Shown here: piece after piece, positions 4,864 through 13,543 of the stretch
How positions within the stretch are numbered: the first letter of the stretch is position 1
How the letters are laid out: every line of letters begins with the position of its first letter
Assembly (NCBI GenBank): GCA_963710375.1
Contig: CAVPZX010000007.1
Coordinates: forward strand, 1 to 64,000
Direction of reading: 5' to 3'
From: Nitrospirota bacterium
Lineage (GTDB): Bacteria > Nitrospirota > Thermodesulfovibrionia > Thermodesulfovibrionales > Dissulfurispiraceae
DNA: 64,000 nt
Translations under genes and position numbers: made by a program
The notes under the pieces: generated by a model
Told to the model about the DNA's origin: nothing
The model's database searches: none
The model's input: only the letters and a program-made list of their open reading frames with translations

Positions 4864-7449
4864 TTATATCTTTTGTATCGTAACTTCGCAGCCCTCAATT
4901 CCTGGGGCCTTTGTGATCGGGTCAAGGTTATAACCAAGGAGTCTGAAAGCCCCTCTGCCCTCAAAGTTATTTGTGAGCATCACTGCTGATTCATTCACTG
5001 TAGTATCAAAGACAACAGGAAGGTTTAAGGTGCTAAATTCAGTTGAGACACTTACTATGTCTCCATTCTTCAATCCCAGTCTCTCTGAAATAATGGGGTT
5101 AATCCTCACAACTGCCTCTGGATAAATACTGTTTAGTGCCACGGACCTTCTGCTTAAAGTTCCTGAATGGAAGAGTGGTTTTTCGATAACTATATAAAGT
5201 TTTCCATCTGAGGCGCGAGGTTTTAGAGGTGAAATGTCTTTTATCATGATTTCCTCTAACACCCCCCTGAGAGGCTCACCCGTATATGGCCAGAGAACAC
5301 CTCCTTTTCCAATCTCTTCATATGTAAGGCCTCTGTAGAGAGGAGAGACCTCGCTGATCTCCCTCATAATATCGTCTGAAGATAAGTAATTCATAGCTAT
5401 ACCCATGTTTTTAGAAATCTCAGCAATTATTCTCCAGTCCTCCATGCCATCGTTTTCCAATGCCTTTCTCAATCTCTGAATCCTTCTCTCAAGGTTAGTA
5501 TAGGTACCATCTTTCTCTGCCCAGCTCAATGAGGGTATGACAACATCTGCTATACGTGCAGTTTCTGTTAAAAAAATATCCTGAACAACTAAAAATTCAA
5601 TATTCTTAAGGGCTGATTCTATCTTCTTAGAGTTTGGCAGATTGAAAACTAAATTTTCACCCATGACATACATCGCCTTTATCGATCCCTCTTCTACTGC
5701 CTCTATCATTTCAAACAATGTAATACCACTTTCTGCAGGTATGCTTGCACCCCATGAACTCTCATATCTCTTCCTAAAATCAGCTAAGCCAATAGGCCGA
5801 TATCCAGGCAACATATCAGGTTCACAGCCCATATCAAGAAGACCTTGTTCGTTTGGCCATTCAGACAGCAGATATATACTTGCGTTAATAACGTGACTCA
5901 AGGCAGAAATAAGCAAGATACTGTAACTGCCGTCAGTCCTTTGTATTAGTTCCGGACCAATCACAATGGCTGGTGTTTGCGCATTGAACAATATCTCTAT
6001 AAATTTTTCAATGTCAGGTCTGGTTATGCCACATTTCTTCTCAACATCTTCCAATGAGGTCTTTATATCCTTTATCCTTGCCTCAAGAATACGCTGTCCG
6101 CCGGTAAGGGCCTTACCTTTTGTGAGTTCTTTAACAAGCCCTTCGAGGAGGATATTCTCAGAGTAAATATTGGGTTCAATAATTATAGGTCTGAAATGCT
6201 CAAGGCCTTTCATATATCCAACTGTCAAGATATTTCCGCCATTATTATGCGATGCCCTGATCTGTAAACCAAGGATAGGATTTATAGTAGTGGGATCCCC
6301 GCCAATACATAATATCGCGTCAGAATTGGTAAGACCTGAAATCATATTTGCAGTGGCTCCCTGCCCAAAGATATTTTCCATTAATCTCTGGGCGCCTGCA
6401 TAACCCATCCTCGCTATGCTATCTATGTTGTTAGTCCCAACGGCAATCCTCATAAATTTCTGGAAAACATAATTGTCCTCATTTGTACATCCTGGCGAGG
6501 CAATACCTCCGATCGCTTTACCGCCATGCAAATCTCTTATCTCACTTAACCTCTTTACAACAAGGCTGATTGCCTCTTCCCATGTAGAAGGCTCAAGCAC
6601 CTCGCCCTTTCTGATGAGCGGGGTCTTCAACCTCTCGCGGCTCCCTACAAATTCATAACCAAATCGTCCCCTTGTACAGGTCAGCCCATTATTTACACCC
6701 ACGCCGAATTTTGCGGCAACCCTTACAATGCTGTTAGATCGAGCTTGAATAACGAGTGTACATCCTACACCGCAATATGGGCAGATTGTCTCCGTTTCAT
6801 TTTCGATGTACCATGGCCTATAAGCATGCCCGTGTAACCTCGACATAATTGCCCCTACAGGGCAGGCTGAAATACAATTACCACAGTATTCACAGTTAAA
6901 GGCGCCACCCGAAAAAGGCTGTACGTGAGAAGAGCCTCCACGATTAATAAAACCAATTGCGAATGCACCCTGAACCTCCTCACACATCCTGACACATCTC
7001 GCACAGACAATACATCTCTCCATATTGCATGCAATAATCGGATCTTCTACGGTGTCAGGAATTTTCCGCTTTTCCTCTATACAACGGCTTTTGGTAGGGC
7101 CGTATTTGTCAACAAGGTCCTGAAGTTCGCACTCACCTGCTTTGTCACAGTAAGGACAATCAAGAGGATGATTTATCAGTAAGAATTCCAGCATACCCCT
7201 TCTGGCTTTAGCTATCTGTTCAGACTCGGTCCTTACAACCATACCGTCCACGGTAAAAAGTGTACAAGCGGTCTGTAACGCCTTCATTTTTTTCACTTCA
7301 ACAAGACACAGCCTGCAGCCTCCAAAAGGTTTAAGTAGTTCATCATGACAGAGTGTAGGGATTTTTATTCCTGCCTGCTTTGCGGCCTCAAGAACCGTCA
7401 TTGTTTTCTCGAGCTTTATTTCCTTGTCATTAATAGTTACTGTAATCAT
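4864..7449 (-). CDS. nuoG: NADH-quinone oxidoreductase subunit G-like Fe-S protein (molybdopterin-oxidoreductase fold, no Mo ligand)
   Basis: IPTLC..GCRLC [2Fe-2S], HPLDCPYC..GEC, CIVCARC, CEYCGNC..CP, CPYCGVGC clusters; FDH catalytic Cys/Sec region reads DSIARMGY. Confidence 0.82.
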   Translation of the reverse strand: MITVTINDKEIKLEKTMTVLEAAKQAGIKIPTLCHDELLKPFGGCRLCLVEVKKMKALQTACTLFTVDGMVVRTESEQIAKARRGMLEFLLINHPLDCPYCDKAGECELQDLVDKYGPTKSRCIEEKRKIPDTVEDPIIACNMERCIVCARCVRMCEEVQGAFAIGFINRGGSSHVQPFSGGAFNCEYCGNCISACPVGAIMSRLHGHAYRPWYIENETETICPYCGVGCTLVIQARSNSIVRVAAKFGVGVNNGLTCTRGRFGYEFVGSRERLKTPLIRKGEVLEPSTWEEAISLVVKRLSEIRDLHGGKAIGGIASPGCTNEDNYVFQKFMRIAVGTNNIDSIARMGYAGAQRLMENIFGQGATANMISGLTNSDAILCIGGDPTTINPILGLQIRASHNNGGNILTVGYMKGLEHFRPIIIEPNIYSENILLEGLVKELTKGKALTGGQRILEARIKDIKTSLEDVEKKCGITRPDIEKFIEILFNAQTPAIVIGPELIQRTDGSYSILLISALSHVINASIYLLSEWPNEQGLLDMGCEPDMLPGYRPIGLADFRKRYESSWGASIPAESGITLFEMIEAVEEGSIKAMYVMGENLVFNLPNSKKIESALKNIEFLVVQDIFLTETARIADVVIPSLSWAEKDGTYTNLERRIQRLRKALENDGMEDWRIIAEISKNMGIAMNYLSSDDIMREISEVSPLYRGLTYEEIGKGGVLWPYTGEPLRGVLEEIMIKDISPLKPRASDGKLYIVIEKPLFHSGTLSRRSVALNSIYPEAVVRINPIISERLGLKNGDIVSVSTEFSTLNLPVVFDTTVNESAVMLTNNFEGRGAFRLLGYNLDPITKAPGIEGCEVTIQKI

Positions 7450-7456
7450 CAGGTTA

Positions 7457-8716
7457 TTACCGCTCTACACTTTTATTTCTTATATGCTCTTCAAATTCAT
7501 CTTTAAAATGCATAAGCATAGGCTCGATAACTATCGGCAAGCTTTCACCGAGGGGACAGAAGCACCTATCCCTGATATTATCTAAGATATCATTTATAAC
7601 CTCTATATCATCATCCCTACCTTTACCATTTTCTATCCTCTCGACAATACGCCTCAGCCATCCAGTCCCTTCTCTGCATGGCGTACATTTCCCACACGAC
7701 TCATGTTCATAAAATTTTAAAGCCCTCCACAATACCCTGACCATGCAGGTTGTCTCATCTATAACCATTACAGCACCACTGCCTAACTCGCTCCCAGCCT
7801 TTTTCATAGAATCAAAATCCATAGCGCACTCTATTTTATCAGCTGGTAAAACGGGTGTTGAGATCCCACCAGGTATAACAGCCTTAAGCTTCTTACCACC
7901 TTTTATCCCACCCGCATGTGTATAAATAAGTTCTCTCAGGGATGTGCCCATAGGAAGTTCATAAAGCCCCGGTTTATTTACATGTCCGCTAATCGCGAAT
8001 AGCTTTGGACCTGGACAATCAGAAGGACCCATCTTTCTATATTCCTCTGGACCTATCTGGATTATTAAAGGGACATTTGAAAGAGTCTCTACATTATTTA
8101 CGATGGTTGGTTTTCCCCATGCTCCCACATTTGCAAGGCGATAATATGGTATTCTCGGGTGTCCCCTCTTTCCTTCAAGAGATTCTAATAGTGAGGAGGC
8201 TTCACCGCATATATATGCACCTGCGCCCTGATGAACCATCAAATGGAACTTCACCCCTTTGCCGATAATATTATAGCCGAGATATCCTTTGCTATATGCC
8301 TCTTCTATAGCCTTGTTCAATATTACCTTTGCCTTTGGATATTCGCCCCTGAGGTATATATATCCATATTCCGCACCATAGGCATAACCAGCTATAACCA
8401 TGCCTTCTATTAATAAATGAGGCCTCTTCTCAAGTATCGTCCTGTCTTTAAATGTTCCCGGCTCTCCCTCATCAGCATTAGCTATAAGGTATTTGGGAGA
8501 AATATCTTTATTGAGACTGCAAAAATACCATTTCATTCCTGTAGAAAATCCGACACCACCACGCCCCCTGAGGTTCGCTTTCCTTACCATGTCAATAACA
8601 TCTGCCGGCGCTATCTCAAGGGCTTTTTGGAGGGCTTGGTACCCCCCTTGCTCAATATAAAAATTGATATCTGCAGAATTAGGATTTTCTATGCCCTTTA
8701 AAAGAAATCTTTCCAT
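7457..8716 (-). CDS. nuoF: NAD(P)H-binding flavoprotein, NuoF family
   Basis: LRGRGG.GF.TG.KW, NADEGEPGTFKDR, GAGAYICGE, ESCGKCTPCREG, CPLG. Confidence 0.93.
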   Translation of the reverse strand: MERFLLKGIENPNSADINFYIEQGGYQALQKALEIAPADVIDMVRKANLRGRGGVGFSTGMKWYFCSLNKDISPKYLIANADEGEPGTFKDRTILEKRPHLLIEGMVIAGYAYGAEYGYIYLRGEYPKAKVILNKAIEEAYSKGYLGYNIIGKGVKFHLMVHQGAGAYICGEASSLLESLEGKRGHPRIPYYRLANVGAWGKPTIVNNVETLSNVPLIIQIGPEEYRKMGPSDCPGPKLFAISGHVNKPGLYELPMGTSLRELIYTHAGGIKGGKKLKAVIPGGISTPVLPADKIECAMDFDSMKKAGSELGSGAVMVIDETTCMVRVLWRALKFYEHESCGKCTPCREGTGWLRRIVERIENGKGRDDDIEVINDILDNIRDRCFCPLGESLPIVIEPMLMHFKDEFEEHIRNKSVER

Positions 8717-8743: not shown

Positions 8744-9208
8744 CTAACTATACTTAGCAAGAATTTCTTCTATCGTCTGTTCTGTAAGATCCCCATAACT
8801 ATCTTCATTAACAAGCATTGCAGGGGCATTGCCACACATCCCGATACATTCCATTATAACAAGAGAAAACCTTTTATCAGGGGTAGTGCCGCCATCCTCA
8901 AGACCATATTTATTCTTTAATAGGTTTATCAGTCTTTCAGCGCCTAATATCATGCACGATACATTCGTACAGAGCCTTATCACGTTTCTTCCCATAGGCT
9001 TGTGCCGTAACATAGAATAAAAGGCGCCAACACTCCTAACAGTAGCCTTTGGGATGCCTAAAGCAGTAGAGACAGCCACATACGCATCGGGACTCAACCA
9101 GCCAAATTCTTTCTGGGCAATATAAAGGGATGGAAGGAGTGCTGCCTTGCTATCAGGGTATCTTGCCTTTATCTCCTCTATTTCTTTTATTGCTGTCTCA
9201 CTTAACAT
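8744..9208 (-). CDS. nuoE: NuoE family [2Fe-2S] subunit
   Basis: CTNVSC...ECIGMC..AP motif, FYSM. Confidence 0.93.
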   Translation of the reverse strand: MLSETAIKEIEEIKARYPDSKAALLPSLYIAQKEFGWLSPDAYVAVSTALGIPKATVRSVGAFYSMLRHKPMGRNVIRLCTNVSCMILGAERLINLLKNKYGLEDGGTTPDKRFSLVIMECIGMCGNAPAMLVNEDSYGDLTEQTIEEILAKYS

Positions 9209-10476: not shown

Positions 10477-10623
10477 AGCGTATTCCATAAAAGATGGCAA
10501 TTTTAATAACTGCCGGCTTGGATGAAATGATTTTTCGGTATATTTTAACTAACTATCTAGTTTTAACTTGATATTTCTATTATATTTATTATATATAGTA
10601 GTATAAATGTTTTGCAAATAACT

Positions 10624-12198
10624 ATGGACTTAAAGAGATTAACCTATTCTTTAACCGGGAAACTTATCCTCACGATAGGCGCCATGATGATTACGGGAAA
10701 CGCCATCCTCTTGTATTGCTTGTTGAACCAACGAGAGAAGGAAATTATAGATAATTCTATCAGAGGGGCTATCAATATCGGGGAAATCGTAAAAAGGAGT
10801 ATCGATTATGGAATGCTGACTTATCATAGAACTATGGTACAACATACAGTGGAAAGCATAGTTCAGACCGACCAGGTTATGCTCGTAAGAATTTTTAACA
10901 GTAAGGGCAGGATTGCATACTCATCGAGAAAAGAAGATATTGGAAAAATGCTTGACGCAAACGCTCCGATCTGTAAGTCTTGCCATTTAGGATCAGGGAC
11001 GCCAATAGCTACGTCAAGTTGTTCAATTAGAAAATCTCCTGAAGGTTACAGAATTCTAACCACTGCGCTGCCTATCTATAACCAGATGAAGTGTTACACT
11101 TCAACATGCCATGTGCATTCTCAAAAAGAGAAGGTTCTTGGCATGATTGAAGTACGTCTATCACTTCAATCTCTTGACACGAGGATAAAACAGAACAAAA
11201 CAACCCTAACATTATATGTCCTCGGTATTTTAGTCATATCGGCTGTTGTTCTTTCGATAATCCTGTGGAATATCATCTCAAAACCTCTCCGTATTCTGAC
11301 AAGAGGTTTGAGGCAGGTTACCGAAGGTAATCTTGAGTGTACTGTCAATATTGATACCAAGGATGAGATAGGAGAACATGCAAAGGTCTTCAATGCTATG
11401 ACATCAGAACTTGCAAAGACAAAGAAAGAACTCGTTGAGTGGGGGCAAACACTTGAAAAGAAAGTTCAGTGGGAAAAAGATGAAATTCAAAAAGCCCACG
11501 CACACCTTGTACATTCTGCAAAACTCGCATCCCTCGGAAGGATAGCTGCAGGTGTAGCCCACGAGATAAACAACCCACTTACAGGTGTAGTTACCTTTAG
11601 TCATCTCTTGAAGGATAGATTTCCAGAGGGAAGTCAGGAAAGAGAGGACATTGAAGTCATTATAGAACAGGCAAATAGATGTTCAAATATTATTAAGGGA
11701 CTCCTTAGCTTTGCAAGAGCTACTACGGCAGATAAAGGCCCTGTCAACATTAATGAATTACTGAAGAATTCTTTGAATATGGTAAGGCATAAAGCAGATT
11801 TCTTCAATATCAATATTATCCTGGATCTTGATGAATCTCTCTCACTTGTAAATGCAAACTCATCTCAGATTCAGCAGGTTTTCTTAAACATGATTATCAA
11901 TGCAGCGGATGCGATGGAGGGAAAAGGGACACTTACCCTCTGCACCCGAAAGGTTACTGAAGATGGTAAGCACTTTGCAGAGGTTGAGTTTACCGATACA
12001 GGTCAAGGTATATATGAAGAGGATAAAACAAAACTCTTTGAACCTTTCTTTACTACAAAACCAGTTGGGAAAGGGACTGGACTTGGTCTTGCTATAAGCC
12101 ATGGGATTATCCATGACCACGCAGGCAATATATCTGTAAAAAGCAAAGTCGGAGAGGGAACAAGCTTCTTTGTGAGGCTCCAATTTTACGAAGGATAA
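10624..12198 (+). CDS. membrane sensor histidine kinase with periplasmic CxxCH motif, HAMP, HisKA, HATPase
   Basis: Two TM helices flanking CKSCH and CYTSTCH; AHEINNP H-box; N, DTG.G, FEPFFTTK, GTGLGL boxes. Confidence 0.92.
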   Translation: MDLKRLTYSLTGKLILTIGAMMITGNAILLYCLLNQREKEIIDNSIRGAINIGEIVKRSIDYGMLTYHRTMVQHTVESIVQTDQVMLVRIFNSKGRIAYSSRKEDIGKMLDANAPICKSCHLGSGTPIATSSCSIRKSPEGYRILTTALPIYNQMKCYTSTCHVHSQKEKVLGMIEVRLSLQSLDTRIKQNKTTLTLYVLGILVISAVVLSIILWNIISKPLRILTRGLRQVTEGNLECTVNIDTKDEIGEHAKVFNAMTSELAKTKKELVEWGQTLEKKVQWEKDEIQKAHAHLVHSAKLASLGRIAAGVAHEINNPLTGVVTFSHLLKDRFPEGSQEREDIEVIIEQANRCSNIIKGLLSFARATTADKGPVNINELLKNSLNMVRHKADFFNINIILDLDESLSLVNANSSQIQQVFLNMIINAADAMEGKGTLTLCTRKVTEDGKHFAEVEFTDTGQGIYEEDKTKLFEPFFTTKPVGKGTGLGLAISHGIIHDHAGNISVKSKVGEGTSFFVRLQFYEG

Positions 12199-12315
12199 CA
12201 AAAAGCAATGGCAATCAAAATTTGAGAATGGAAATTGCAAAAGTGCAGGTGTATGTTTATTTGAACTTACATTAACACATTCACCCTCATAAATTTACAT
12301 CGAGAGGAGTTCGCA

Positions 12316-12705
12316 GTGAGTAAAGGCAAGATCCTTGTTATAGATGATGAAGATATAGTGCTGAGATGCTGCCAAAGAATACTTACCCCAGAGGGTTATG
12401 ATGTAGATATATCAAAGAATGGAATGGATGGCCTGAAATTGCTCAAAGATAAAGCCTTCGACCTTGTTTTGGTAGACATCAAGATGCCTGAGATGGACGG
12501 CATGGAGGTCCTCAAACAAATCAAGAAAAAATGGTCTGATACCCAAGTAATAATCATAACAGGATATAGTACCCTTGAGTCGGCTATATTTGCCATGAAA
12601 CTTGGTGCATATGACTATGTTGAAAAGCCTTTTACACCTGATGGGCTCACCTCGGCAGTAAAAAAGGCCTTTGATGAGGAAATGGGAGAACAGAAAGAAA
12701 AATGA
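12316..12705 (+). CDS. single-domain response regulator
   Basis: VIDDE, DIKMP, ITGY, KPF; GTG start after GAGGAG. Confidence 0.92.
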   Translation: MSKGKILVIDDEDIVLRCCQRILTPEGYDVDISKNGMDGLKLLKDKAFDLVLVDIKMPEMDGMEVLKQIKKKWSDTQVIIITGYSTLESAIFAMKLGAYDYVEKPFTPDGLTSAVKKAFDEEMGEQKEK

Positions 12706-12772
12706 ACATCCATGAGAAGCAGGGACTTAAAATTCTGCGATACGTGACAATGTAATAAAAGGGGGTATATCT

Positions 12773-13543
12773 ATGGAAAAAAGGGGGAAGATATTAGTAG
12801 TAGATGACGACCCTGTTGTAACCCTGAGTTGTAAAAGAATACTCGGTGCTGATGGCTATAATATCATAACAGTTGATAAGGGAAAAGATGGGATAAAGAG
12901 AATTAATAGCGAGGAGTTTGATCTTCTAATTTCGGACATGAGACTGCCGGATATTAACGGAATGGAAGTAGTAAAAGAATCCAGGATTATTCAACCAAAG
13001 TTAGATGTTGTCATTATTACAGGCTATCCTAATCTGGATGATGCTAAAGAATCAGTACGACTCGGTGTATTTGAGTATATTGAAAAGCCATTCACGCCTG
13101 ATTTTATGAGAAACGTAGCAAAGAAGATATTTGATAAGAAAGGCTGGATACTAAGGCAATCATTTATCGACGAGTTCAGAGACTATTTTGTCCCTTTATT
13201 GGATGAAGAAAACCCTGTTATATTTTATAAGGAAGGCACATGGGCAAGACCGATTAAGGAGGAAATATGGGAGGTTGGTTGTGATGTTAGGTACTGGCTC
13301 CTTGGCGCCGAGCTCCTCTATATAGATATTCCTGAAGGGCTGAACACCCTTGTAGCCGGGGAATCTTTTGCCAAGGTATCTAGCAGCAATGGTGAGACAC
13401 ATGAATTAATAGCCCCGATGACGGGTGTTGTTAAAGAGATTAACCGTCGCGCAAATGAGGCCATGAGTGCCCTTATTCGCGACGACCTGAGTGGTGGCTG
13501 GCTACTCTGGTTAGCACGAATGCAACCAATAACGTCTGCTTAG
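12773..13543 (+). CDS. response regulator fused to a glycine cleavage H-like domain
   Basis: REC (VVDDD, DMRLP, KPF) then YKEGTWAR..VG..IDIP..AGESFAKV..LIAPMTGVVKEIN..GWL, matching the GcvH pattern. Confidence 0.8.
   Translation: MEKRGKILVVDDDPVVTLSCKRILGADGYNIITVDKGKDGIKRINSEEFDLLISDMRLPDINGMEVVKESRIIQPKLDVVIITGYPNLDDAKESVRLGVFEYIEKPFTPDFMRNVAKKIFDKKGWILRQSFIDEFRDYFVPLLDEENPVIFYKEGTWARPIKEEIWEVGCDVRYWLLGAELLYIDIPEGLNTLVAGESFAKVSSSNGETHELIAPMTGVVKEINRRANEAMSALIRDDLSGGWLLWLARMQPITSA

Follow-up and report, generated by a model that had tools for sequence, protein, structure and literature searches.

Which nicotinamide nucleotide enters complex I through the NuoF encoded at this locus, and where did the gene come from? 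NuoF-containing complex I is regarded as specific for NADH, E183 of the E. coli protein binding the adenosine ribose of NADH, and to our knowledge NADPH use via NuoF is known from engineered variants only; Morina (2011) and Auriol (2011) reportedly dealt with engineered E. coli NuoF E183 variants, of which E183A and E183G are said to allow NADPH oxidation. In the literature searched, with most subscription journals outside its scope, neither a natural NADPH-type complex I nor a natural NuoF E183 variant was described. The preliminary description of the present gene had proposed such a variant, in a paralog preferring NADPH.

The nucleotide pocket of NuoF

The window, by which we mean the whole 64,000-nucleotide stretch analysed, comes from a soil bacterium of the Nitrospirota. 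Its nuoF is an intact ORF on the minus strand; the plus strand of 7457-8716 has many stops. The product, P0001, scores 560.3 bits against the curated NuoF model TIGR01959, passing the threshold of 558.65, and shows four Pfam domains, with FMN, SLBB and N3 domains and without the BfuB extensions. The accompanying NuoG scores 469.4 against TIGR01973 (cut-off 470.05). A promoter and terminator scan of the region gave nothing usable, and a search for RNA runs that contain it listed none.

The motif YICGEAS (residues 168-174), its Ala codon and the PRIPYYRL segment are all present as first described, on the minus strand. The register was set by a block of 41 residues, equal in length in P0001, Aquifex and Thermus (176-216), E. 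coli (174-214) and T. kivui HydB (311-351); the Aquifex alignment has no gaps across the pocket stretch, and the equation of the Ala with E. coli E183 is borne out. Both the NADH-site Glu (183/185) and the aromatic residue at 205 are missing, with Ala173 and Arg193 in their places. The loop that stands where PRxKPPFP is expected has lost its Lys and has Tyr for two Pro, one of these Tyr being His in two of 10 clade proteins. Nine pocket residues are altered together in the clade (Val55, Ser58, Ala173, Ser174, Pro190, Tyr191, Tyr192, Arg193 and Leu194), while Phe57, Lys62, DEGEPG, Tyr168, Glu172 and NNVET are retained. An AlphaFold model of the protein matches the fold of Aquifex NuoF (TM 0.90), with pLDDT below 50 at residues 185-195, which makes it unreliable at the key loop that holds Arg193.

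Table 1. The nuoEFG region: genes, pocket residues and divergent cassette (window positions)
Feature	Position	Strand	Remarks
nuoF	7457..8716	-	419 aa, FMN/NAD(P)H-binding subunit, Ala/Arg pocket variant
nuoE	8744..9208	-	154 aa; four [2Fe-2S] Cys at 80, 85, 121, 125
nuoG	4864..7449	-	861 aa; Fe-S cysteines present
Ala173 codon GCC	8198..8200	-	= E. coli E183, Thermus and Aquifex E185, T. kivui HydB Ser320
Arg193 codon CGC	8138..8140	-	= Thermus/Aquifex position 205 (aromatic), E. coli 203, T. kivui HydB Arg340
Remodelled loop PRIPYYRL, residues 187-194	8135..8158	-	in place of PRxKPPFP
Gly-rich loop GRGGVGFS, residues 51-58	8543..8566	-	Ala>Val and Pro>Ser in 10/10 clade members
EPGTFK motif, residues 85-90	8447..8464	-	complex I type, not DPGAFM of bifurcating BfuB
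Cluster N3 ligands C341, C344, C347, C387	7556..7696	-	all four present
Kinase-like gene, response regulator, receiver-GcvH-like gene	10612..13543	+	divergent from nuoEFG

Ala is found in nine of the best 120 database clusters (79-99% identity, one of them the window's own) and Glu in the other 111; all nine have the Arg loop too, together with Val/Ser in the Gly-rich loop, and the named matches of this clade are Nitrospirota (Thermodesulfovibrionia). The Ala is therefore neither an error nor due to chance. Sequencing error can also be set aside on the assembled contigs from runs X2, X3 and X6 (three studies, X3 being the possible source study), in which both codons are unchanged; three of four runs span both, X10 having no coverage there. 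The clade is rare: among 134 genomes of the same class sampled, the form YICGEA[ST] occurs in this one only, and a form F[VI]CGEA, also with Ala, in 25, where it is BfuB-type in the loci read.

In four of the five other clade genomes found, the variant lies inside a nuo operon (L038, nuoD-N; L040, nuoA-F; L041, nuoD-F; L042 with L043, nuoC-N), and it is therefore a true complex I subunit; each of these four has one complex I nuoD, the MAGs being incomplete. Four clade pairs give dN/dS values of 0.08-0.10, against 0.09-0.10 for Glu orthologues, and the two copies that postdate the transfer described below (this genome and G003) give 0.27 at a dS of 0.13. Within this small clade of Nitrospirota the variant has become fixed, and it is under purifying selection. 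Three other identities were considered and rejected. A decaying gene is at odds with the intact Fe-S ligands and a dN/dS of about 0.1. A bifurcating BfuB/HydB subunit would not have EPGTFK rather than DPGAFM, 419 aa and neither thioredoxin-like nor 2x[4Fe-4S] domains; the non-bifurcating type, earlier recognised from EPGTFK and GAYI, stands. An NAD(P)-linked formate dehydrogenase beta subunit fails on its partner, which is NuoG (Fdh-alpha score 428.9, cut-off 666.25), with no Cys or His at the position that we take to be the formate-dehydrogenase catalytic site.

Arg193 and the choice of nucleotide

On the alignments, the second change, Arg193 for the aromatic residue at Thermus 205, would count for more than Ala173. 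The altered loop had been noticed before; the meaning of Arg193 within it is added here. The role suggested for the Arg rests, by analogy, on one solved NADP enzyme, T. kivui HydB (8A6T), which has Ser320 and Arg340 at the two pocket positions, a small residue plus Arg that Ala173/Arg193 matches; Val55, Ser58, the two Tyr and the loss of the loop Lys are features of the clade absent from it. C. autoethanogenum HytB is another NADP-specific homologue. Six other solved Bfu subunits (7Q4V, 7T2R, 7P5H, 9N5U, 9BOV and 8OH5) retain Glu with Phe or Tyr, and of these 7T2R and 7P5H are presumably NAD-using. For 7Q4V, 8OH5, 9BOV and the 9N5U complex, NAD use is stated in text passages or entry titles. 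Passages of PMC10021017 describe the T. kivui enzyme as working on NADP+, with the nucleotides held by the Gly-rich loop, Phe205 and Arg340; the figure legend in that paper does not state that Arg340 binds the 2'-phosphate.

The two positions also vary together. When 149 of 150 unselected 50%-cluster representatives were realigned, 131 had the Glu and none of these had Arg, His or Lys at position 193; of the 18 lacking it, 15 had a basic residue there (Arg in 7, His in 8). A tree of 205 rows, drawn with the motif columns dropped and taking in motif-selected loci, gave 10 independent pairs, of which 7.4 changed the same way and none the opposite way (median p 0.008, range 0.008-0.06). Under a strict filter (93 of the 150 representatives) four pairs were left, and the result was not significant (p 0.625).

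Loss of the acidic residue has been engineered in C. necator HoxF, whose E341 we take to be the equivalent of E. coli NuoF E183. According to passages of PMC10127272, the E341A/S342R variant gained NADP+ use, with an affinity for NADP+ similar to that for NAD+, and the change of Glu to Ala relaxed the specificity rather than switching it. The WorB protein of A. mobile (9MQX) has Ser and His at the two positions and is described in PMC12318220 as NAD-reducing, in passages that mention no NADP test, and was solved with NAD(H) bound; since it lacks the Glu and is yet so described, Glu loss alone is not diagnostic of NADPH use. The preference for NADPH proposed in the preliminary description thus survives as a lean towards NADP(H), drawn from the match of Arg193 to T. 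kivui HydB Arg340, and not as something that the missing Glu could prove. Both HoxF and WorB speak for a relaxed specificity in P0001 as well, with NADH and NADPH oxidised about equally and both pools coupled to complex I, and so does the finding that the Ala/Arg type is the only complex I found in genomes G041-G044, which favours retained NADH use. We think such a dual enzyme unlikely: all 10 clade proteins have Arg193 as a fixed residue and none of the 131 representatives with Glu has an Arg there, a pattern that positive recognition of a phosphate would produce, and all four Ala/Arg gammaproteobacterial genomes checked have a Glu/Phe NuoF beside a nuoD in addition to the Ala/Arg one, suggesting a division of labour.

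A native core and an imported module

The genome (G000) is 98.8% complete and P0001 is its sole complex I-type NuoF, so that the term paralog used for it earlier has to be dropped in favour of a horizontally acquired gene. Just one further protein resembles NuoF, a BfuB-GltD fusion of 1038 aa that has both Glu and Phe. The loci G000:C9:42804-48008, C6:107739-110423 and C3:116391-119594 hold this fusion followed by a molybdopterin enzyme, and molybdopterin genes; three molybdopterin genes of the genome have an in-frame TGA, probably for selenocysteine.

A native core of 11 genes, nuoABCDHIJKLMN, lies on contig C2, separate from that of nuoEFG, with nuoD followed directly by nuoH and without nuoEFG of its own. 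Three genus mates have a Glu-type nuoEFG adjoining nuoD, two of five genus mates checked have a split operon with a detached Glu-type nuoEFG, and in two with the split operon no such nuoEFG was found. NuoD nests in its own genus (100/98) and NuoF in the Ala clade (100/99); monophyly of the genus for NuoF is rejected (p-AU 6.5e-42; 15 rows, motif columns removed). GC3 is 0.37-0.40 in nuoEFG against 0.52-0.58 in five native nuo genes. The nuoEFG genes are horizontally acquired. The divergent cassette (Table 1) is 61/63/82% identical to one divergent from nuoA in L040, which has a full Ala-type operon, and was likely transferred with them. The simplest history would be that operon and cassette arrived together and that only the three genes missing from the host core were retained.

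Several observations concern the neighbourhood of such modules. A fusion of a response-regulator receiver with a GcvH-like domain (Pfam E 3e-5; window 12773-13543, L040 3674-4441, L039 13914-14681) accompanies Ala-type nuo genes, apparently without the lipoyl lysine motif, judged by what we take that motif to be. An nfnAB-like pair adjoins the L040 cassette, and beside it (L040 271-1164) a response-regulator receiver is fused to a NuoE-like [2Fe-2S] thioredoxin domain. In G003 the flanks are unlike those of this genome, and the ORF directly upstream of nuoE (L039 8076-9239) is presumably transposase-like.

It is conceivable that the pocket takes no pyridine nucleotide at all and that the flavin site serves flavodoxin, ferredoxin or a lipoyl/GcvH-type carrier, given that nine pocket residues from Val55 to Leu194 have changed together and that the receiver-GcvH-like gene travels with the module. 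We regard this as highly improbable, in view of the residues retained around the site (Phe57 to NNVET), of the match of both key changes to an enzyme solved with NADP+, and of the Lys-to-Pro change, which is common to the Gly/Arg complex I lineage.

The proteins might also form a free soluble NAD(P)H diaphorase, leaving the 11-subunit core to be fed by ferredoxin without NuoEFG. In this genome and in G003 nuoEFG does stand alone, with a native operon in which nuoH follows nuoD, and G002 and G004 (90% and 81% complete) have the nuoD-nuoH operon with no NuoF of the P0001 type found; both have an E. coli-type complex I. This we hold to be very unlikely: four relatives encode these proteins within the nuo operon, as subunits, every cluster ligand of NuoG is in place, the adjacent genes include no catalytic partner, and nuoEFG alone, with the upstream cassette, was kept from an operon that was apparently transferred.

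We consider it rather probable, from sequence comparison, that the imported NuoEFG prefers NADP(H) and docks on the native 11-gene core, the docking being something we infer since the two lie on different contigs. With Ala/Arg in place of Glu/Phe, resembling the small residue and Arg of the known NADP-using relative, it likely feeds NADPH, and not NADH, into respiration. Loss of the Glu would open room for the 2'-phosphate, and Arg193, replacing the aromatic residue, may stack on the adenine and neutralise the charge of the phosphate; electrons would then pass from FMN via N3, NuoG and NuoI/B of the native core to menaquinone, with proton pumping, and the reverse direction, i.e. NADPH production, may also be possible. 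With potentials of about -380 mV for NADPH (E'), -280 mV for NADH and -74 mV for menaquinone (PMC9304861, Table 1), the drop to menaquinone is about 300 mV from NADPH and about 200 mV from NADH, so that four-proton pumping would be easier with NADPH. Genes for NfnAB lie next to those for CODH/ACS in this genome, which also encodes PntB, cytochrome bd and a haem-copper oxidase and has two genes of the menaquinone (Mqn) family, with no match for dsrA. Since PntB and NfnAB already interconvert the pools, a need for NADPH entry does not prove its use. There are also 22 ORFs with at least three CxxCH motifs and up to 26 haems (G000:C3:143337-170909 and others).

Other lineages and known systems

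The Ala/Arg pair also occurs in NuoF of nuo operons in Thioalkalivibrio and other gammaproteobacterial MAGs, with the pair in all of the best 120 matches. Six gammaproteobacterial loci (L073, L074, L089, L097, L102 and L105) are second nuo operons with an Ala/Arg NuoF and a short NuoG of about 475 aa, and upstream of nuoA in L073, at about 6 kb, lie rbcL and a LysR gene; the motif Cys is Ala in 61 of the best 120 Ala/Arg matches (P0312 and 60 more). A Gly/Arg NuoF is found in E. coli-type operons of Desulfobacterota-like MAGs, in 119 of the best 120 matches. Loci L069, L064 and L072 are Desulfobacterota-like E. coli-type operons with Gly/Arg, Ala/Arg or Ser/His, among them the cultured Pseudodesulfovibrio karagichevae 9FUS, with Ser/His and a one-residue loop deletion. 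The NuoF of S. meliloti pSymA is canonical.

In Nitrospirota family f23 (loci L045, L046, L054, L058; L044, L050-L053), 11 of 12 genomes have Ala without Arg; there the in-operon NuoF combines Ala with a retained Tyr and a Trp for Gly in the Gly-rich loop, and a second, stand-alone nuoEFG has Ala or Asp. Many BfuB of Thermodesulfovibrionia (L033, L127, L125, L137, L197-L215) have Ala or Ser with Arg, the Ala pattern being matched in 12 of 13 genomes of family f12, and are candidate NADP-linked bifurcating enzymes.

The best tree keeps the Nitrospirota, gammaproteobacterial and Desulfobacterota-like lineages separate; the AU test does not reject joint monophyly of this clade with that of the Gammaproteobacteria (p-AU 0.077). 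We give an even chance to the broader proposal that a natural NADP(H)-specific proton-pumping complex I arose at least three times by the same two substitutions, in this Nitrospirota clade, in Thioalkalivibrio-like Gammaproteobacteria and in Desulfobacterota-like bacteria, with an input module that genomes can exchange and that gives a resident core a new fuel. What is new here is a lineage with the variant as its sole complex I input, together with evidence of a module swapped in. If the cofactor reading is right, the pair of residues would serve as a signature from which to tell, in genomes, the cofactor of complex I and Bfu enzymes; metabolic models would change for menaquinone-using anaerobes and for chemolithotrophs that have two complex I operons, and strains that respire or make NADPH would have a natural template.

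Among known systems, the NuoF/Nqo1 proteins of Aquifex aeolicus (6HL2/7Q5Y), Thermus thermophilus (2FUG) and E. coli (7AWT) have the same fold, domains, EPGTFK motif, N3 ligands and nuoE-F-G order as the present module, the Aquifex protein (TM 0.90) being about 50% identical to P0001, which differs from them in having Ala for Glu183/185, Arg for the aromatic at 205, the remodelled 187-194 loop and Val/Ser in the Gly-rich loop. The HydB of T. kivui (8A6T, HydABC) shares the small residue and the Arg; it is, however, a bifurcating subunit of 630 aa that carries DPGAFM and additional Fe-S domains and belongs to a soluble hydrogenase, whereas P0001 is a 419-aa subunit of complex I. In the engineered E. 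coli E183 variants and HoxF E341A/S342R the acidic residue is likewise removed, and HoxF gains an Arg too, but the change in P0001 is natural and clade-fixed, and its Arg lies 20 residues downstream. A. mobile WorB (9MQX) shares the loss of Glu (to Ser) and a basic residue at the aromatic position, and differs in being a bifurcating subunit with His instead of Arg, described in a passage of PMC12318220 as NAD-reducing.
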